From Candidatus Bathyarchaeia archaeon (GTDB lineage Archaea; Thermoproteota; Bathyarchaeia; Bathyarchaeales; Bathycorpusculaceae), in NCBI GenBank assembly GCA_049512935.1, contig JBEKWR010000032.1, positions 1 to 16,471 of the forward strand: a stretch of DNA of 16,471 nt. Reading direction: 5' to 3'. The translations under genes were made by a program, and so were the position numbers. The first letter of the stretch is position 1. Each line of letters begins with the position of its first letter. The notes under the pieces were generated by a model. That model worked only from the letters and a program-made list of their open reading frames with translations, did no database searches and was not told the origin of the DNA. Positions 3,936 to 14,932 of this stretch are shown here, one piece after another.

Positions 3936-5000
3936 ATGAGCGATTCATATTTCAAAAAGAAGCTTGAACCAATCAAAGTTAAACAAAAAAGCATTTCACA
4001 ACTTTTAACTGAAATGAGCAAAACCGCCTACCAGGGACGCAAACTCGGCGAGGCGGTAGATGTTTGGGAGAACATGCTCAAGGAAAAAGACCTCACCATC
4101 GCCATGGGCTTCGCAGGCAGCATGAGCACGGCGGGTCAATGGACGATTATTAACTGGCTTATGGAGAACCGTTTCATCGACGTGCTGGTTTCCACGGGCG
4201 CCAACGTTTCAGAAGACATAGTTGACGCTATGGGTTTGGGTTACTGGCAGGGAAGCCACATGGTTGATGATTCCGCGCTGCTTAAGGCAGACGTTAACAG
4301 GTACTACGACGTCTTCGGGAAAGAGACCGACTACCGAAAGATGGAGGAACTGGTCACTGACTTCGTGATGACCCTGAAAACAGACTACAACTACACATCC
4401 GCTGAGTTTCTGCATCTGCTCGGAAAGTATCTGGGCAAGAAAAAGATTCCAGCAATCTCCGCGGTCGCAGCCGCAAACGGGGTTCCAATCTTCAGCCCCG
4501 CCATGGTTGACAGCGCCTACGGCGAAACATTCCTCATGGCGAAAAACCAGGGACACAGCGTCCACATTGATTCCGTCAGGGAGTTTGACGAGTTCATCAG
4601 CATAGGCACAAAAACAAAGGATGTCGGCGTGGTCTACATCGGCGGCGGCGTACCCAAAGACCTAACGCAGCTCATAGCCATATCGGTTTCACCGCTAACT
4701 GAGGATCAAGGCGTCAAAGGCAGAAAAGGCGGCTTACGCAAAGGCTTACAAGAATACTACTACCCCCACAAGTACGCCATACAGATAACGACGGACTCTG
4801 CGCAGTGGGGTGGCCTGAGCGGGTGCACGCTGGAAGAAGCCATTAGCTGGGGCAAAATCAACAGCCAAGAAGGTACACGAGCAGTATGCTACTGCGACGC
4901 AACCATCGCACTGCCGCTGATTGCACATGCCTTGTGCGAGCGGATACCTGAGAAACGGAAAGGGCCAGACATGAGCTGGCTATTCAAAGGTGTCCAATAA
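3936..5000 (+). CDS. Deoxyhypusine synthase-like protein (divergent paralog, GGGVPK/GGLSGCT type)
   Basis: 354 aa. Motifs STGAN, NRYYD, SPAMVDS, GGGVPKD, QITTD, GGLSGCTLEEAISWGK (catalytic Lys present), CDATIALP. Confidence 0.9.
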   Translation: MSDSYFKKKLEPIKVKQKSISQLLTEMSKTAYQGRKLGEAVDVWENMLKEKDLTIAMGFAGSMSTAGQWTIINWLMENRFIDVLVSTGANVSEDIVDAMGLGYWQGSHMVDDSALLKADVNRYYDVFGKETDYRKMEELVTDFVMTLKTDYNYTSAEFLHLLGKYLGKKKIPAISAVAAANGVPIFSPAMVDSAYGETFLMAKNQGHSVHIDSVREFDEFISIGTKTKDVGVVYIGGGVPKDLTQLIAISVSPLTEDQGVKGRKGGLRKGLQEYYYPHKYAIQITTDSAQWGGLSGCTLEEAISWGKINSQEGTRAVCYCDATIALPLIAHALCERIPEKRKGPDMSWLFKGVQ

Positions 5001-5008
5001 AACAACCC

Positions 5009-5031
5009 TTTAACTTTTTTATTTTCTTTTT
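5009..5031 (+). terminator. Oligo-T archaeal terminator after the DHS-like gene
   Basis: TTTAACTTTTTTATTTTCTTTTT begins a few bases after the stop at 5000. Confidence 0.55.
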
Positions 5032-5162
5032 GCCAAGTCTATCTAGAAGCGCGGTGGTCATTTATCAGTGTGATTGTTGTGACGTCGTCTTCAATCAGGA
5101 TGTGCCGCACTTTTTCACTGATTTTACCCCATGAAACGGCTTCGCGGAGCCTGGCGTCTGAG
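5022..5162 (-). pseudogene. Decayed copy of the 3' ~45 codons of dys
   Basis: Aligns to 6494-6635 (about 105/134 identical by hand count). It translates ARLREAVSWGKISEKVRHILIEDDVTTITLI/(+1 frameshift)MTTALLDRLGKKK versus ARPREAVSWGKISEKAKRIMIEGDATVIMPIMTSALIDRLSKKK in dys. Confidence 0.92.
5110..5143. repeat. 34-bp perfect direct repeat, copy 1
   Basis: CTTTTTCACTGATTTTACCCCATGAAACGGCTTC, identical to 6581-6614. Confidence 0.95.
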
Positions 5163-5181
5163 AGCAAGTTTTCTGTAGGCT

Positions 5182-5227
5182 AAAAAGTTTTAAATCTATG
5201 TACTTACGTACATAATATTATGTACTT
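5182..5227 (+). promoter_or_regulatory. BRE/TATA promoter plus palindromic operator of the MNT-HEPN operon
   Basis: AAAAAG-TTTTAAAT lies ~25-30 nt before ATG 5220 (leaderless). TATGTAC-N4-GTACATA at 5197-5214 and the perfect 18-bp palindrome GTACATAATATTATGTAC at 5208-5225. Confidence 0.75.
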
Positions 5228-5837
5228 TGAACCTTTAACGAAAACCTCAGTCGAAATCCTTGCGCATCTCAGCTCAAAAATTCGTGAAAGCTTTACAGTG
5301 CGCCAGATTGCTGAAGCAATAAAAAAGGACTATAAAATTTCTCATGTGATGACGATGAGGTTAGCGGAGAAGCATTACATAATTGCAGAAAAGAAACCTC
5401 CAGTTACGTACTGCAAACTAAACCTAAAAGGCAATTCATCGCTTCTTGCTTACATCGAAGCGATACGCGCTAGTCGCTTCTTTTCCAAAAATCGAGATTT
5501 GGAAATACTCGTAAACGATATCTTTTCAAAAGTTCGTGGGCCATTTTTTACTTTAATGATCATCGGGTCTTACGCAAAAGGCACAGCTTCAAAAAAATCC
5601 GATTTGGACATTCTTCTCATAATTCCCGACCGGCAGATGGAAAGAGAAGTCTCATTAGCTGTGGGTTCCGTTGAGCACATTAGCCCCCTCAGCATCCATG
5701 ATACAGTGTTTACAAGTGATGAATTCGTGGATCTTTTAAACCAAAAAACGCCTAATATTGCATGGGAGGCAGTAGATAACAGAATTGTTGCGTATGGTGC
5801 TGAGGAATTCTTCAGAATCTTGGAGGCGATTTTATGA
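5220..5837 (+). CDS. Winged-HTH + minimal nucleotidyltransferase (MNT/MntA-like antitoxin)
   Basis: N-terminal wHTH-like segment (FTVRQIAEAIKKDYKISHVMTMRLAEKHYI). GS-X10-DXD motif (GSYAKGTASKKSDLD). ATGA overlap with the HEPN gene. Confidence 0.85.
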   Translation: MYFEPLTKTSVEILAHLSSKIRESFTVRQIAEAIKKDYKISHVMTMRLAEKHYIIAEKKPPVTYCKLNLKGNSSLLAYIEAIRASRFFSKNRDLEILVNDIFSKVRGPFFTLMIIGSYAKGTASKKSDLDILLIIPDRQMEREVSLAVGSVEHISPLSIHDTVFTSDEFVDLLNQKTPNIAWEAVDNRIVAYGAEEFFRILEAIL

Positions 5838-6445
5838 TAGATCAAGCAAGGACTAATGAAGCAAAAAGGAACGTGAAACAATATGTCGATGACGGTTTAT
5901 TAAAGCTCAATGAGAAAGATGCGCCAAGGTTTGTTGGCTTTTTTATGGCGAACGCAGAATCTTCTCTGCGTACGGCGTCTGTTCTGCAGCAAATATCAGA
6001 TGATGATTCACTTAAAGAAGCATTGAAGGTAGGCTTGAATTTTGAGTCCTACTTGTGGGTAATCGTATCTTGTTATTATGCGATGTTTTATGCCGCCACA
6101 GGTCTTTTGGCGAAACAAGGGATTAAAGCTTCAGGCCAAATAGTGCACAAGGTTACTGCAGATGCATTGATTCATTTTTTTGCTTCGAACGAAAAGCTGG
6201 CGAAGCTGCTTGAGCAATATGAAGAAGCGCAAACGGTTGGGTTGGAGTTGATTGGACGAGAGGAACTTATGAAAAAGATGCAAAAGAAGGCTGATGAACT
6301 AATAATATCATATGAGGGCGAGCGAAAGAAACGAAGCAAGTTCCAATATGACATAGGAGTCCAAGCAAAAAGAGGATACGCCCAAACTTCGCTTGAAAGA
6401 GCAAGAACCTTTGTTTTCGAAATAAACAAACTAATAAAATCATAA
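5834..6445 (+). CDS. HEPN domain protein (putative toxin partner of MNT)
   Basis: CYYAMFYAATGLL...G...H motif and C-terminal R-X4-Y (RSKFQY) typical of MNT-associated HEPN. Translationally coupled to the MNT gene. Confidence 0.85.
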   Translation: MIDQARTNEAKRNVKQYVDDGLLKLNEKDAPRFVGFFMANAESSLRTASVLQQISDDDSLKEALKVGLNFESYLWVIVSCYYAMFYAATGLLAKQGIKASGQIVHKVTADALIHFFASNEKLAKLLEQYEEAQTVGLELIGREELMKKMQKKADELIISYEGERKKRSKFQYDIGVQAKRGYAQTSLERARTFVFEINKLIKS

Positions 6446-6485
6446 AAGATGTATTTCAAAGGCTGGCAGAAAGTTAATCACTCTA

Positions 6486-7463
6486 CTAACCAGTTTTCTT
6501 TTTGCTCAGCCTGTCAATAAGCGCGCTGGTCATTATTGGCATTATTACTGTTGCGTCGCCTTCAATCATTATGCGCTTGGCTTTTTCACTGATTTTACCC
6601 CATGAAACGGCTTCTCGCGGTCTTGCGCCGCTGAGGCTTCCGTCCCACTCATCTGCTGTGCTGATGTAGACTACGAAGTCTAAGCCGTCTTTGAACTGGT
6701 TCCACCAAATCGTGTGATGCTTGCTGATGCCTCCGCCGACGATTAGGGCGCCGCTTTTCTTAGCGTCGAAAACGATGTTGTTGAGGTCACCTTCGTCTTT
6801 AAGCAAGTTAATCCTGAAGTCATGGTGGTCCTGACTGAAGAACCATAGCTGGTAGCCTACGGAGCCGTCGGTTATGCCTGGCACAAACACGGGGATGTTG
6901 TTTTTCGCTGCCCAGTAAAGAATTGAGGTTTCGTTGCAGCATCGTAAGCCGATTTCACGGCACAATTCGGTGGTGGAAAGTTCCCGTTTGCCTTCCTTGT
7001 ACAATTCCTCAAGGAGCCCGATGATTTTTTTCTCTATGATCATCCCGTAGCTGTCGTTTGGCACAAGCACGTTTCCAAGGCGGTTTACGCCTTCCCGGTG
7101 AAGTTTTGAATCGTTCATTACGAAGCTGCCTTTGTAGTAGTCTTTCCAGCATCGGGCAACGTCATGGTCCAATGTGCCGCAGGTTGTTATGACGACGTCG
7201 ACGAGTTTGCGCTTGACGAGTTCCTTGATTACGCCGCGGGTGCCCGTGGCAACTATGTCGGCGGGGAACGATAGAAACTTGACGCATCCCTCTGCGTTAA
7301 TCATGGACTCTATTATGCCCACGCCAACGGCAACCTTGCCAGCGGTGAAACCCCATGCCTTATCCATTTGGCGAACAAGCTCATCCACAGACATTCCCAC
7401 TGTAAAATCGTAATCCTTCACTGGTTCCTTATGAGGTACTTTAGGCAATAGCTTAATCTCCAA
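6486..7463 (-). CDS. dys: Deoxyhypusine synthase (canonical TACK-type, aIF5A modification)
   Basis: 325 aa, TTG start. Motifs TTCGTLDHD, NRLGN, PGITDGS, GGGISKHHTIWWNQF, DEWDGSLSGARPREAVSWGK, EGDAT. Confidence 0.95.
   Translation of the reverse strand: MEIKLLPKVPHKEPVKDYDFTVGMSVDELVRQMDKAWGFTAGKVAVGVGIIESMINAEGCVKFLSFPADIVATGTRGVIKELVKRKLVDVVITTCGTLDHDVARCWKDYYKGSFVMNDSKLHREGVNRLGNVLVPNDSYGMIIEKKIIGLLEELYKEGKRELSTTELCREIGLRCCNETSILYWAAKNNIPVFVPGITDGSVGYQLWFFSQDHHDFRINLLKDEGDLNNIVFDAKKSGALIVGGGISKHHTIWWNQFKDGLDFVVYISTADEWDGSLSGARPREAVSWGKISEKAKRIMIEGDATVIMPIMTSALIDRLSKKKTG
6581..6614. repeat. 34-bp perfect direct repeat, copy 2 (inside dys, encodes EAVSWGKISEK)
   Basis: Identical to 5110-5143. 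Confidence 0.95.
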
Positions 7464-7512: not shown

Positions 7513-8754
7513 CTATTTTCGGATTTGTCCGTTTCCCAGTATAACGTATTTTGTCGTGGTTAGATGCTGCACGCTCATGGGTCCTCGTGCATGGAGCTTC
7601 TGGGTGCTGATGCCGATTTCCGCGCCTAACCCGAATTGGTTGCCATCCGTGAACCGTGTCGAAGCGTTCCAGTAGACGGCGGCTGAGTCGACTTCGCGTA
7701 TGAACCGCATTGCTTTGTCAAAGTCCGCGGTGAGTATGCTGTCTGAGTGGTGAGTGCCGTACTTGTTGATGTGGGCTATGGCTTCGTTTAGGTCCTTGAC
7801 GACTTTTACGCCCATAATGAGGTCTGAGTATTCAGTGTACCAGTCCTGTTCAGTTGCAGCCTTCACGTCAGGAACGATCCTGCGGGTTTCCTCGTCACCT
7901 CTAACCTCGACGCCTTTCTCCCTAAGCGCAGCAACAACCATGGGCAGGTACCGCTCGGCGACTCTACTGTGAACCAGAAGTTTTTCCGCTGCGTTGCAAG
8001 TTCCAGGCCTTTGGCATTTGGCGTTAATGACTATGGGCGTCGCTTTTTCCAAGTCAGCGTCTTCTTCAACGTAAACGTGACAGTTACCTGTTCCCGTCTC
8101 AATAACTGGAATACGCGAAGTTTCAACCACGGTTTTGATTAGATCTGCGCCGCCGCGGGGAATAAGCACGTCAACATACTCGCGCATCCGCATAAGCTCT
8201 TCAGCAAACTTGCGGTCAGCCGACTCAACCACCTGCACAGCATCAACAGGCACCTGGGTTCCCAGCAGCGCGTCTCTGAGAACCTCGCCTATTGTAACGT
8301 TTGAGTTTAAAGCGTCAGAGCCGCCCCTGAGGATAACGGCGTTGCCTGATTTGATGCAGATTCCAGCCGAATCCGAAGTTACGTCAGGTCGCGACTCGTA
8401 AATAATCCCGATAACGCCGAGGGGCACACGCACCTGGCTGATTATCAACCCGTTGGGTCTTGTCCACGTGTTTAAGATTGTGCCGATCGGGTCTGGCAGA
8501 GCTGAGACTTCACGGAGACCCTTAGCCATACCTTGAATTTTACGTTGGTCAAGCGCTAAGCGATCAATCATCGACGCTTTGAGCCCGCTGTGCATTGCCG
8601 CGTCAACGTCCGCCAAGTTGGCAGTTAAAATCTTCTCCGTGTTCGCTTCCAAAGCGTTTGCAATTCTGCAAAGCGCCGTGTTCTTCGCTTCAGCCGTAAG
8701 ATGAGCCATCTCAACTGAGGCAGCCTTGGCTTTTTTGCACATTTCAGTTATCAT
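7513..8754 (-). CDS. proA: Gamma-glutamyl phosphate reductase (glutamate-5-semialdehyde dehydrogenase)
   Basis: Motifs VPLGVIGIIYESRP, KSGNAVILRGGS, PRGG, GNCHVY, catalytic CNAAE, NASTRFTDG.FGLGAEIGISTQKLHARGP. Confidence 0.97.
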   Translation of the reverse strand: MITEMCKKAKAASVEMAHLTAEAKNTALCRIANALEANTEKILTANLADVDAAMHSGLKASMIDRLALDQRKIQGMAKGLREVSALPDPIGTILNTWTRPNGLIISQVRVPLGVIGIIYESRPDVTSDSAGICIKSGNAVILRGGSDALNSNVTIGEVLRDALLGTQVPVDAVQVVESADRKFAEELMRMREYVDVLIPRGGADLIKTVVETSRIPVIETGTGNCHVYVEEDADLEKATPIVINAKCQRPGTCNAAEKLLVHSRVAERYLPMVVAALREKGVEVRGDEETRRIVPDVKAATEQDWYTEYSDLIMGVKVVKDLNEAIAHINKYGTHHSDSILTADFDKAMRFIREVDSAAVYWNASTRFTDGNQFGLGAEIGISTQKLHARGPMSVQHLTTTKYVILGNGQIRK

Positions 8755-9878
8755 TTTTCTTCCCCGATTAGGTGGATATTTCTACGTTCAACCGCCTCTT
8801 TAGGTTTGTCTGCGCCAAGTTTGACCTGGACCTCCGCAGCTTGGCAGCCTTTAATCAGGTTCAATTCGCCGCTGGTAAAGTTAGGGTTGCCTTTCGCAAA
8901 CTCAACCTTGCACTCATCCCTGATGCTGACAACATCGCCGGCGCTGAAGTGCCCAACTACACGCGTTATGCCCACTGGCAAAAGGCTTGAACCTTCAAGA
9001 ATTGCTTTTTTTGCACCTGTGTTAACGTGAAGCTCCCCTTTAACCGAGGCACCGTAAGCTATCCAACGCTTCACCGCAGGCATCGACGTCTGAGGCTTAA
9101 AGAAGGTGCCGACGTCTTTCCCAGCAAGAACATCCACTAAGACGTTTTCTCTACGGCTGTTAGCTATCACGACAGGGATGCCGCATGAAGTTGCGATTTC
9201 GGCGGCTTTAATTTTGCTCTGAATGCCGCCTCTGCCGCGCTTGCTTTTCCCGTTAAGCGAGCTTTTGAGTTCAGGAGTTACGGCTTCTACGGTTTTAATC
9301 AGCTGCGCGCCGGGTTCGTGCGGGTCAGCGGTGTATAAGCCGTCAACGTCTGAGAGTATTATTGTCATGTCAGCGCCGATGGCGCCTGCCAGCAGGACTG
9401 AGAGGATGTCGTTGTCGCTGAAGTTCACCTTGTAACCTTCCGTCTGCCTCAGTTCAGCCACAGACGTCACGTCGTTCTCGTTGATTATCGGGACAACGCC
9501 CGTTTTCAAAAGCATGTTCAAAACGTTACACATGTGAAGGTAAGATGCCCTGTTGGAAAGGTCTTCCGCGGTAAGCAGAATCTGAGCGGCTTTCAACCCG
9601 TAAGCTTTGAAGAGTTCTCGGTACTTTGCCATCAGCACGCTCTGCCCCGTCGCCGCAGCCGCCTGCTGAAAAACCACGTCATTAGGTTTAGGAGGTATCC
9701 CGAGCTCCGCTATTCCCGCGGCAACCGCGCCTGAGGTTACAAGAACAACTTTGTCGCCCTGCTTGGTTACCGCTGCGATTTGGCTGGTCAGCTTCTGCAT
9801 TTCTTCCTCGTCTAGGTTTCCCTCGCTGGTCGTTATGCCGCTGGTCCCAACCTTAACAACTATCAATCTTGAAGGCAT
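8751..9878 (-). CDS. proB: Glutamate 5-kinase with C-terminal PUA domain
   Basis: Motifs VVKVGTS, VTSGAVAAG, QAAAATGQ, PIINEND, FSDNDILS, LSDVDGLY, GGIQSKIKAA, SLLPVGI..V.G.F..GD (PUA). 4-bp overlap with proA. Confidence 0.97.
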   Translation of the reverse strand: MPSRLIVVKVGTSGITTSEGNLDEEEMQKLTSQIAAVTKQGDKVVLVTSGAVAAGIAELGIPPKPNDVVFQQAAAATGQSVLMAKYRELFKAYGLKAAQILLTAEDLSNRASYLHMCNVLNMLLKTGVVPIINENDVTSVAELRQTEGYKVNFSDNDILSVLLAGAIGADMTIILSDVDGLYTADPHEPGAQLIKTVEAVTPELKSSLNGKSKRGRGGIQSKIKAAEIATSCGIPVVIANSRRENVLVDVLAGKDVGTFFKPQTSMPAVKRWIAYGASVKGELHVNTGAKKAILEGSSLLPVGITRVVGHFSAGDVVSIRDECKVEFAKGNPNFTSGELNLIKGCQAAEVQVKLGADKPKEAVERRNIHLIGEEK

Positions 9879-9885
9879 CTGTCAA

Positions 9886-10023
9886 TCACTTTTAGAGATA
9901 GAATTGAGATATGCGGGGGTTCCTTAAAAATACAACCAAAAAACAACAATAAAATTTTGTTAGTTCCTAGAAATTCTGAGTTTAAACATACCATTGCATT
10001 AATATTTTAGAAAAATATATAAG
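9886..10023. promoter_or_regulatory. Divergent promoter region proB / hppA
   Basis: AT-rich. Minus-strand TTTTTAAG (9923-9930) and GTGAT RBS-like element before proB. Plus-strand GAAAAA-TATATAAG (10010-10023) lies ~25 nt before ATG 10048. Confidence 0.55.
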
Positions 10024-13661: not shown

Positions 13662-14225
13662 ATGAGTAAACGAAAACCAATAATTTCGATACAAAACATC
13701 GTAGCCTCCGTATCACTTAATCAGAAAATTGACCTGCAGAAAATCGTTGAAAAATTCCCGCAGACCGAGTACAACCCGAGTGTTTTCCCAGGCTTAGTGT
13801 TCCGCCTTAAAAAACCGAAAACCGCCACGTTGATTTTCGGGACAGGCAAAATGGTTTGCACAGGCGCTAAATCCGAGAAGGAATCCCGTAGCGCCGTGGA
13901 AAAAGTCGTTAAAGAACTCCGCGGCGAAGGCATTCAGATTACTGAGAAGCCGATCGTTAACATCCAAAACATCGTTGCCTCGGCTGAGCTCGGCGGCGAA
14001 ATCGACTTGGAAAGCTTAGTGTATAAGCTTGAACGGGTAATGTACGAGCCCGAGCAGTTTCCAGGCGCAGTATTCCGCATGGCTGAACCTAAAGTCGTCT
14101 TCCTGATCTTCTCCGCTGGCAAACTCGTCTGCGTAGGCGCAAAGAAAGAAGAGCAGGTTTACGAAGCAGTCGATAAAATCCAGCAGCTACTTGAAGAAAA
14201 AGAACTCATCTACTACCCAACCTAA
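13662..14225 (+). CDS. tbp: TATA-box-binding protein
   Basis: Two internal repeats: IQNIVAS...YNPSVFPGLVFR...LIFGTGKMVCTGAK and IQNIVAS...YEPEQFPGAVFR...LIFSAGKLVCVGAK. Confidence 0.98.
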   Translation: MSKRKPIISIQNIVASVSLNQKIDLQKIVEKFPQTEYNPSVFPGLVFRLKKPKTATLIFGTGKMVCTGAKSEKESRSAVEKVVKELRGEGIQITEKPIVNIQNIVASAELGGEIDLESLVYKLERVMYEPEQFPGAVFRMAEPKVVFLIFSAGKLVCVGAKKEEQVYEAVDKIQQLLEEKELIYYPT

Positions 14226-14227
14226 AC

Positions 14228-14932
14228 CTATTTTTTCATTCTTCTGCGAACCGCAGGATTCAAATCTGAAAGTTTCTTGAGCGCCAACTCAAAAGTCTCG
14301 TCCGAAGACAGCTCCCTATGAATGAATACGCCTGTCCTGCCGACTGCGTCACGTTTTAGAAGCGTGTGAACCCGATCCAGAACCGTTTCAGCCGAGATGC
14401 CGAGGGTTTTGGCGGCGTCTTCCTCTCTGCCGATGATGCTGCTTTCAACATGCCCCTTCTCTGTGGGTTCGATAAGCATCAGCCTTTTATCGACGCCTGG
14501 GAAACGGGCGTTGGCTTTGAGTTGGCTTAGGCTTGCTTCTCCGCCGAACATGTAGAACTCCCGCTCAACCCTGCGCATCTGCATAAGGGGAAACGAAACG
14601 GTTACTTGCTCGCAGACTTCGATGTGTGCTTTCATAGCGTAATTCGGCGTCGCTTGCACAACATATCGAGCGTTAACAGGCACCTTTGCTTTTTCCAAAG
14701 CAGTCTCTACAAGAAAGCTGTTCTGCACCTCAGGAATGAAAACGTCTCCGTCGCTGCCTTTTTTAACGTCGCCGCGGGCCACGCTTCCATAGGCAACCGA
14801 AGCCAGATGAAACGCTTCCAGCGCAGACATTACTTCTTCGGTTTTTTTCCTCAGTTCTTTTAAAAGCGTCCAGCGTGCGCTGGTGTAAGTTACTTCTCTG
14901 TAATCTGAAAGTTTTGTAGGCTTAACTGTCAT
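14228..14932 (-). CDS. Predicted nucleotidyltransferase (Pol-beta superfamily, archaeal COG2413-like)
   Basis: Motifs Y...RW.LL..LR, YGSVARGDV...SDGDVFI, VQATP, E.EFY.FGG, GVDKRL.LIEP..GH, R...L..RD.VGRTGVF. Confidence 0.85.
   Translation of the reverse strand: MTVKPTKLSDYREVTYTSARWTLLKELRKKTEEVMSALEAFHLASVAYGSVARGDVKKGSDGDVFIPEVQNSFLVETALEKAKVPVNARYVVQATPNYAMKAHIEVCEQVTVSFPLMQMRRVEREFYMFGGEASLSQLKANARFPGVDKRLMLIEPTEKGHVESSIIGREEDAAKTLGISAETVLDRVHTLLKRDAVGRTGVFIHRELSSDETFELALKKLSDLNPAVRRRMKK

Follow-up and report, generated by a model that had tools for sequence, protein, structure and literature searches.

How does a two-gene cassette that encodes no recombinase come to lie between two copies of the end of a host gene? 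The question was raised by a contig of a Candidatus Bathyarchaeia archaeon (GenBank assembly GCA_049512935.1, contig JBEKWR010000032.1, here C32), of which the whole stretch of 16,471 nucleotides (nt) was analysed and is called the window in the following. The archaeal genome to which it belongs is 2.3 Mb in size and 93% complete, and DNA of the window is present in peat and wetland metagenomes. In the window, the gene for deoxyhypusine synthase (DHS), dys or DHS2, is separated from a convergent paralogue (DHS1) by a second, broken copy of its own 3' end and by a minimal nucleotidyltransferase (MNT)-HEPN gene pair resembling a toxin-antitoxin (TA) module. A first-pass annotation, made from the sequence alone, had proposed that a circle carrying the pair and a dys tail integrated by a single crossover in the catalytic-site codons. 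Comparison with congeners shows that the cassette is inserted and that the native gene tail was displaced; of the possible mechanisms, an insertion with long target duplication at the DHS2 3' end is tentatively favoured here, with a likelihood a little short of even.

The features of the locus are listed below with their coordinates in the window and their strand.

3936..5000, plus strand: DHS1, a deoxyhypusine-synthase paralogue of 354 amino acids (aa), convergent with DHS2 and the far border of the insertion site
5001..5021, no strand: native DHS2-DHS1 spacer, aligning with the 11-54-nt spacers of empty-site congeners
5022..5165, minus strand: displaced native DHS2 tail (codons ~276-325), frameshifted, with a premature stop, 71-79% identical to the functional tail
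5110..5143, minus strand: perfect 34-nt island, copy 1 (EAVSWGKISEK codons), within the remnant, exact identity confirmed
5188..5219, plus strand: putative promoter and operator region of the cassette, conserved upstream of MNT in cassette relatives
5220..5837, plus strand: MNT-type nucleotidyltransferase, 205 aa, with Pfam nucleotidyltransferase (NTase) matches and the NTase motif
5834..6445, plus strand: HEPN-like protein, 203 aa, overlapping MNT by 4 nt, with HEPN proteins as fold neighbours
6446..6493, no strand: junction DNA from the cassette to the duplicated tail, which provides the new DHS2 end codons T-G-stop and is without a relative elsewhere
6486..7463, minus strand: DHS2 (dys), functional deoxyhypusine synthase, 325 aa, with the proximal repeat copy as its 3' part (6494-6637)
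6581..6614, minus strand: perfect 34-nt island, copy 2, within functional DHS2, exact identity confirmed

The dys locus was fetched from 116 congener loci, and spacers were counted in the 107 loci with both gene ends, window included. Empty sites, with a single tail and a DHS2-DHS1 spacer of 11-54 nt, were found in 39 of the 107; the spacer was intermediate (67-294 nt) in 19 and cargo-bearing (566-8141 nt) in 49. Because DHS2 and DHS1 stand directly convergent in 39/107 congener loci, the presence of the cassette is an insertion, and the check for an empty site that the first-pass annotation had asked for came out in favour of its insertion with tail displacement. The remnant in the window ends in KKKI and a stop; the ~19 nt of spacer that follow, and the stop of DHS1 beyond them, can be aligned with empty-site genomes. 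The native spacer overlaps the start of a T-rich run (5014-5031). The functional tail ends in KKKTG and a stop within unrelated DNA. As the distal, broken tail is still joined to the native spacer and the DHS1 stop, it is the displaced native tail; the data support the view that the proximal copy completes the DHS2 gene and that the distal copy is the old tail. No match to window 6440-6500, the possible trace of a junction donor, was found in any fetched locus, and a 9-nt fragment of the DHS1 tail in the junction (TTCAAAGGC) was judged to be there by chance.

The perfect repeat that had drawn attention to the locus was exact: 5110-5143 and 6581-6614 are identical at 34/34 nt, mismatched on both flanks and the sole two copies in the window. 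Translated from the minus strand, the 34-mer reads EAVSWGKISEK, in which we take the K of EAVSWGK to be the DHS catalytic lysine. It is part of a larger imperfect repeat (5022-5146 versus 6494-6617, 79.2% identity over 125 nt), recovered by the repeat search as segments 5062-5156/6533-6627 (77%) and 5022-5062/6494-6534 (83%) with spacings of 1471 and 1472, so that the copies differ by a 1-nt indel. Aligned by eye, their homology extends to about 5165, giving a whole repeat of ~145 nt. The C-terminal translation of functional DHS2 ends in SGARPREAVSWGKISEKAKRIMIEGDATVIMPIMTSALIDRLSKKKTG and a stop; that of the left copy ends in SDARLREAVSWGKISEKVRHILIEDDVTTITLINDHRASR and a premature stop, and past the frameshift LDRLGKKKI can be read, which bears out the description of this copy as diverged and frameshifted. 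Between the copies lie MNT, the HEPN-like gene, 40 nt of junction between the end of the latter and the DHS2 stop, and the functional tail, and nothing else; the open reading frame (ORF) content thus agrees with what had been noted, the promoter region and the junction being additions. The insert has a G+C content of 39.4%, against 49.0% for the window.

Three parts of the earlier proposal were not borne out or were weakened. The functional tail, which it took to be brought in by the circle, is as native-like as the gene body by segment identities, and in a tail tree of 117 columns and 123 rows approximately unbiased (AU) tests of 6 gene/remnant pairs did not reject sister copies (p 0.27-0.58); for the window's own two copies p was 0.42, with no conspecific empty site in the sample. 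Insertion in the catalytic-site codons is weakened by the layout: the duplicated block starts near codon 276 and the cargo adjoins the stop-codon end of DHS2, the catalytic-site codons being simply contained in the duplicated block. The third part, a crossover in the 34-nt core, turns on the age of that core. An identical core was found in only 80 of 6786 congener DHS2 pairs (1.2%), and the core of the window differs by at least 1 nt from that of all 116 other congener DHS2 genes. Outside it the repeat copies are 71-74% identical, and the chance of a 34-nt perfect run in such a repeat is ~3e-4 to 9e-3 by our own arithmetic; the core match is beyond chance. Beyond the core, the remnant has 9 amino-acid replacements over 17 codons, and the best identity to relatives' tails, among those sampled, reaches 91% for the proximal copy and at most 76% for the distal one. 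With the remnant flanks so heavily decayed, a 34-nt tract as old as they are would not be expected to survive unchanged, and the perfect core seems to postdate the insertion. Two congener genomes, G081 and G059, have a PIN-MazE cassette and a remnant in common at dys, the two loci being ~75% identical, yet the G081 remnant is identical to its own tail at 53/54 positions, from which it follows that repeats at the dys site can be re-homogenised. Taken together, flank decay and homogenisation in G081 suggest that the 34-nt island is a later gene-conversion tract rather than the original crossover point.

The window is not the only locus with a scarred dys tail. When each genome's own tail was compared with its own spacer (68 spacers of at least 60 nt), remnants were found in 7 spacers, as listed with identity and length.

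window: 79%, 125 nt
G098: 81%, 115 nt
G074: 73%, 119 nt
G049: 89%, 91 nt
G081: 98%, 54 nt
G131: 82%, 88 nt
G004: 85.5%, 221 nt

Apart from this test, one further remnant was found in G083 (81.5% over 65 nt), and a decayed one in G059 was recognisable solely through alignment to G081. Remnants are thus present in 8 congeners besides the window, with annotated cargo beside 6 of these, and the cargo varies, as the proposed search for dys-tail duplications around variable cargo had anticipated. All are in direct orientation and downstream of the newer cargo, and 5 adjoin DHS1. The dys repeats are 54-221 nt long, their left ends fall in codons 249-308 and their longest perfect runs lie at differing places; the remnants of G049 and G131 may go back to one event. 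Among the occupied spacers, PIN-MazE pairs occur in at least 9 genomes, and the other cargo includes Fic, a PBECR2 nuclease, an OLD-family nuclease, a DUF6036 nucleotidyltransferase, transporters and secreted repeat proteins; the dys spacer gathers defence-type genes.

Some individual dys loci deserve mention in their own right. An OLD-family ATPase-nuclease lies at 8070-9902 of locus L112 (G079) and a Fic/DOC gene at 2144-2632 of locus L090 (G108), both in the dys spacer. The spacer of L032 (G016) holds three tandem small cassettes (PIN_3-MazE, PIN with a 77-aa ORF, and a 67-aa ORF) with no detectable tail remnants between them, and one PIN gene of this array is split in two ORFs. At 6303-7276 of L036 (G004, a genome 71% complete), DHS2 was recovered in several frames with apparent frameshifts, which point either to an assembly-quality problem or to a decaying gene.

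The cassette itself was found at none of the other 116 congener dys loci by tblastn and blastn. Nine congeners hold it at non-dys loci, with MNT identities of 65-80%, and the nucleotide homology of these relatives covers exactly window 5165/5179-6447, comprising only MNT, HEPN and the palindrome of the promoter/operator. In the putative promoter and operator region, 5188-5196 read TTTTAAATC and 5198-5213 form the palindrome ATGTACTTACGTACAT. At 3 of the 9 congener loci the cassette is flanked by target-derived repeats: a 3' part of tRNA-Asn in G019 (55 nt, 91%) and the 5' end of the myo-inositol-1-phosphate-synthase gene in G108 (126 nt, 85%) and G004 (167 nt, 77%). Target-type repeats were also seen in 6 of 28 metagenome contigs with usable flanks, which represent 4 distinct loci. 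At one of them (L165:552-2373) the last ~55 codons of a cas6 gene (PF10040) are duplicated around an MNT-HEPN cassette, 164 of 165 nt being identical (99.4%), and the distal copy retains the native stop and the downstream gene; this is the youngest event among those found. Across all loci the repeats are 42-221 nt long, and their identities run continuously from 99.4% and 98% to 73%; such variable lengths and such a continuous range are as expected of ageing duplications. The orientation of the cassette relative to its target varies among loci. Since the same cassette family is flanked by differing target-derived repeats elsewhere, a target duplication fits better than a fixed attachment (att) site in dys.

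Related loci gave further observations. In L187 a 95-nt direct repeat of 83% identity (62-154 and 2380-2472) brackets an MNT-HEPN relative and an extra ORF, and no Rfam family and no Pfam-bearing ORF matched the repeated sequence. In L147 (G019; 720-830 and 2205-2310) the full-length tRNA-Asn shows 5 departures from the consensus of the congeners (C5G, two bases in the T loop and two in the acceptor), and the partial distal copy retains the consensus; the 'intact' copy may be the damaged one. A search of genome contigs with the MNT protein alone found no relative.

The two cassette proteins may fairly be called TA-like, judging by sequence and predicted fold. MNT scores above the cut-off for PF18765 (27.6 bits, cut-off 26.9) and PF01909 (27.3 bits, cut-off 21), and its NTase motif GSYAKGTASKKSDLD, starting at residue 116, has the form GSx(10)DxD and fits G[SG]x9-13DxD. 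Its N-terminal ~90 residues match no family, the NCBIfam MntA model gives 24 bits, below its cut-off of 60, and PADLOC returned weak nucleotidyltransferase matches for it. The HEPN-like protein was assigned to no family by PADLOC and falls short of PF05168 (20 bits, cut-off 22). It is a member of a large and highly conserved family, with 444 homologues found, of which the 120 listed are 80-100% identical; one source labels it 'UPF0332 family', and a 94% identical homologue carries the label 'Candidatus Bathyarchaeia archaeon'. Its predicted model (predicted local distance difference test, pLDDT, 82.7) had as top Foldseek neighbours the HEPN proteins 1o3u, 1ufb, 1wol and 2hsb, with target-normalised template-modelling (TM) scores of 0.47-0.77 and probabilities of 0.98-1.00, and no Foldseek match at E<=0.001; on this model the partner would have the HEPN fold. 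A motif search for Rx4-6H, the RNase motif, gave no hit in this protein, and the residues invariant in 25 homologues include H105, R167, Y172 and R189, without the Rx4-6H arrangement. Sequence searches of the PDB gave 0 matches for HEPN, one chance-level match for the HEPN profile and, for MNT, only HI0073 at E 0.18.

MntA/HepT is a TA system of type VII, and its name enters here through the NCBIfam match. The pair in the window resembles it in that two genes overlapping by 4 nt form an operon and encode a minimal NTase with GSx(10)DxD and a partner of predicted HEPN fold; it differs in that the partner is without Rx4-6H, that MNT has the extra N-terminal ~90 residues and that profile scores are weak. 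Elsewhere in the window, at 14228-14932 on the minus strand, a second gene with a nucleotidyltransferase domain (PF01909, 25.6 bits) stands tail to tail with the gene for the TATA-binding protein (TBP, 13662-14225), and might be another solitary NTase cassette. An Rfam scan of the window found no RNA families.

The target, DHS2, lies above curated profile cut-offs (PF01916, 359 bits; NF002294, 446 bits, cut-off 350), DHS1 scores 291.8 bits for PF01916 and 436.5 bits for NF002006 (cut-off 434), and the two proteins are 24% identical. The dys gene is essential.

The statement that no integrase is encoded stood up: none of the 15 window ORFs scanned matched a recombinase family. Integrases were likewise absent from 103 ORFs scanned at congener dys loci, where the one mobility-family match was an IS200-like fragment in G002; no recombinase was found among 37 flanking ORFs beside metagenomic cassettes at 10 loci, and no intact element with an integrase was seen at the 107 dys loci. 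One tyrosine recombinase (511 aa) was detected in the genome, on contig C2, in a block of helix-turn-helix (HTH) and unknown genes (L159:11053-18395) that ends near tRNA-Gln(CTG) and a third DHS paralogue, 5 kb from the recombinase. The block may be an element integrated at tRNA-Gln. The recombinase was considered as an in-trans helper and set aside: it stands beside tRNA-Gln within the HTH block, and nothing ties it to dys.

Under the tentatively favoured reading, a promoter-MNT-HEPN module of ~1.3 kb and 39% G+C, one of a family of solitary two-gene cassettes dispersed in peat Bathyarchaeia chromosomes, would have inserted at the extreme 3' end of DHS2 without a recombinase of its own, leaving ~145 nt of target duplicated. 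The copy joined to the gene body would preserve DHS2, its frame running 2 codons into junction DNA, and the distal copy would have stayed with the old spacer and DHS1 and decayed to a pseudo-tail. The 34-nt island would have been kept, or remade identical, by gene conversion between gene and remnant. We infer that the repeats were born as a target duplication, that host break repair joined the ends and that conversion maintains the island. Several points weigh against this. A 34-nt perfect run amid flanks of 71-74% identity is very improbable under plain decay, so an extra process, conversion, is required, and conversion was not observed in this genome. The starts of 5 of the 7 remnants fall within codons 276-292, around the catalytic lysine, and such clustering looks like a preferred crossover zone; the same zone is A-rich. 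For G098 and G074, tails of other species are closer both to the functional tail and to the remnant than these two are to one another, which hints at imported tails, the AU tests falling short of significance. The metagenome contig L178 holds a related cassette at the same dys site, with a HEPN 86% identical and junction DNA only 37.5% identical; the site may have been hit twice, and would then be a preferred one. The 3' parts of tRNAs and the 3' ends of genes are, moreover, classical integrase targets, and protein-gene 3' ends are used by 14 of 68 thaumarchaeal elements according to the text of the survey in PMC6563490. Finally, long target duplication is a label for a pattern and specifies no joining chemistry.

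A Campbell-type single crossover is possible, if somewhat doubtful. In it a circle with the cassette and a dys 3' segment, formed by repeat-by-repeat excision at another dys locus, would recombine in the 34-nt core through host homologous recombination or a tyrosine recombinase acting in trans, leaving an element-borne proximal and a native distal tail. The perfect core between two sharply diverged flanks, a core identity so rare among congener pairs (1.2%) that it looks selected by recombination, the remnant starts clustered at the core in 5/7 events, the tail-versus-remnant distances in G098 and G074, the family cassette beside a dys tail in a second lineage (L178) and the one tyrosine recombinase of the genome (contig C2) all agree with it, and in G004 the remnant and the DNA downstream resemble the functional tail and context of G003, the functional tail of G004 itself being different. 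No donor was sampled, however, with 0/116 other congener dys loci holding the cassette; unrelated target repeats at no fewer than 5 other loci, in either orientation, would call for a new homology arm each time; dys repeat lengths vary between 54 and 221 nt; the functional tail is not detectably foreign; the decay of the remnant flanks is too advanced for a core dating from the same event; and no recombinase is linked to any case. The AU tests fit this crossover and the target duplication alike. That a larger integrase-bearing element once sat at the dys 3' end and was mostly deleted, the addictive TA-like pair being retained because its loss is counter-selected, is quite unlikely in our estimation. 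Archaeal integrative elements do commonly target gene 3' ends and tRNAs, and TA modules dominate the small dys cargo (PIN-MazE in at least 9 genomes, Fic, PBECR2, DUF6036 NTase). Yet 0-55 nt separate the cassette from one repeat copy and 48 nt from the other, and the fit is equally tight at the tRNA-Asn, inositol-phosphate-synthase and cas6 loci, so that repeated precise deletions are unlikely, and no intact integrase element was found at dys in the 107 loci.

Homology-facilitated illegitimate recombination could also have brought in linear DNA of a related archaeon: one end would have recombined by homology within dys and the other been joined, illegitimately, at a point upstream of where the resident tail ends, whereby this tail is duplicated. 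We regard this as very unlikely: it accommodates the variable left boundaries of the remnants, the junction DNA without relatives and the related cargo shared by species at the dys site (G049, G131 and G016; G081 and G059), but it needs a donor with the cassette beside dys, of which none was sampled except the L178 lineage, and it explains neither the target repeats at other loci nor the perfect core. A misassembly, in which a chromosome with DHS2 and the distal tail and a separate 1471-nt circle were misthreaded through the 34-nt repeat, is highly improbable. In each of four runs the public k=31 contigs stop at this repeat (4735-5139, 5114-6610 and 6585 onward), and both threadings fit them. 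Insert and flanks nevertheless have equal depth in every run (X1: 11.2 versus 9.6-14.7), L178, an independent metagenome contig that stems from a relative, spans HEPN, tail, core and gene body, the alternative chromosome would hold a frameshifted DHS2, the 1.47-kb circle would be without a replication gene, and reads longer than 34 nt should resolve such a repeat. A joint of 5000 with 6528, present in runs X1 and X4, was considered as an excision product and rejected: the contig, in which a DHS2 tail follows the stop of DHS1 almost immediately, has ~90% identity to the window within its DHS2 overlap and comes from an empty-site-like relative.

A bolder extension is that integrase-free addiction cassettes are active mobile units of Bathyarchaeia that cycle at gene ends through long-repeat recombination, the 34-nt island being the footprint of ongoing excision and re-integration. 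We think this improbable; if true, the ultra-conserved core of dys would be a cross-species landing pad, which would explain the dys-tail scars, beside differing cargo in the cases examined, in at least 9 genomes of the genus; its analogue would be the virus-like cycle suggested earlier for restriction-modification units.

Insertion with long target duplication of restriction-modification units reportedly goes back to Nobusato et al. 2000, and the question of how defence or addiction modules without recombinases reach new chromosomal sites dates from that naming. The genus studied here is rich material for it: a single cassette family occupies at least 6 distinct landing sites with flanking repeats, the events span repeat identities from 99.4% to 73%, and one gene tail is hit by differing cargo. 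It also appears that the end of archaeal dys tolerates recurrent rewriting of its last codons. A literature search found no paper that names dys as an integration target, in agreement with the first-pass annotation.

Among known systems, cis-mobilisable elements (CIMEs) are att-flanked, recombinase-less relics of integrative elements in streptococci. The insertion at dys is like them in having cargo between repeats that resemble attL and attR, without recombination genes of its own; unlike it, CIMEs share att sites with a cognate element that has an integrase, and none was found for dys in the 107 loci. Archaeal integrative elements, as presented in the main text of Krupovic et al. 2019 (PMC6563490), where dys has 0 occurrences, are similar in that a gene 3' end is the target, new last codons and a stop come from the element side, attL/attR-like repeats are left and the site is checked against the empty site of a sister species. 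They differ in having integrases, lengths of kilobases and att sites with a median of 17 bp, compared with no integrase and repeats of 42-221 nt here. Closest is long target duplication as set out in the relevant passages of Furuta et al. 2010 (PMC2853133) for bacterial restriction-modification units without other mobility genes, where it is recognised by target-derived direct repeats >30 bp, a single-copy empty site in a relative and an insert <20 kb, and where, according to the same passages, no archaeal case passed the filter of the restriction-modification survey. In the window, the repeat exceeds 30 bp (79% over 125 nt), relatives have single-copy empty sites and the insert holds no mobility gene. 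Compared with the cases in those passages, the likeness extends to a small addiction-type unit, repeats of variable length derived from the local target and a lower G+C content; the differences are the MNT-HEPN cargo, the archaeal host, a dys tail hit repeatedly by differing cargo, and repeats that are old and decayed save for the 34-nt island. The MNT-HEPN insertion at dys would extend long target duplication to an archaeal host, to TA-like cargo and to a gene tail that is hit recurrently.

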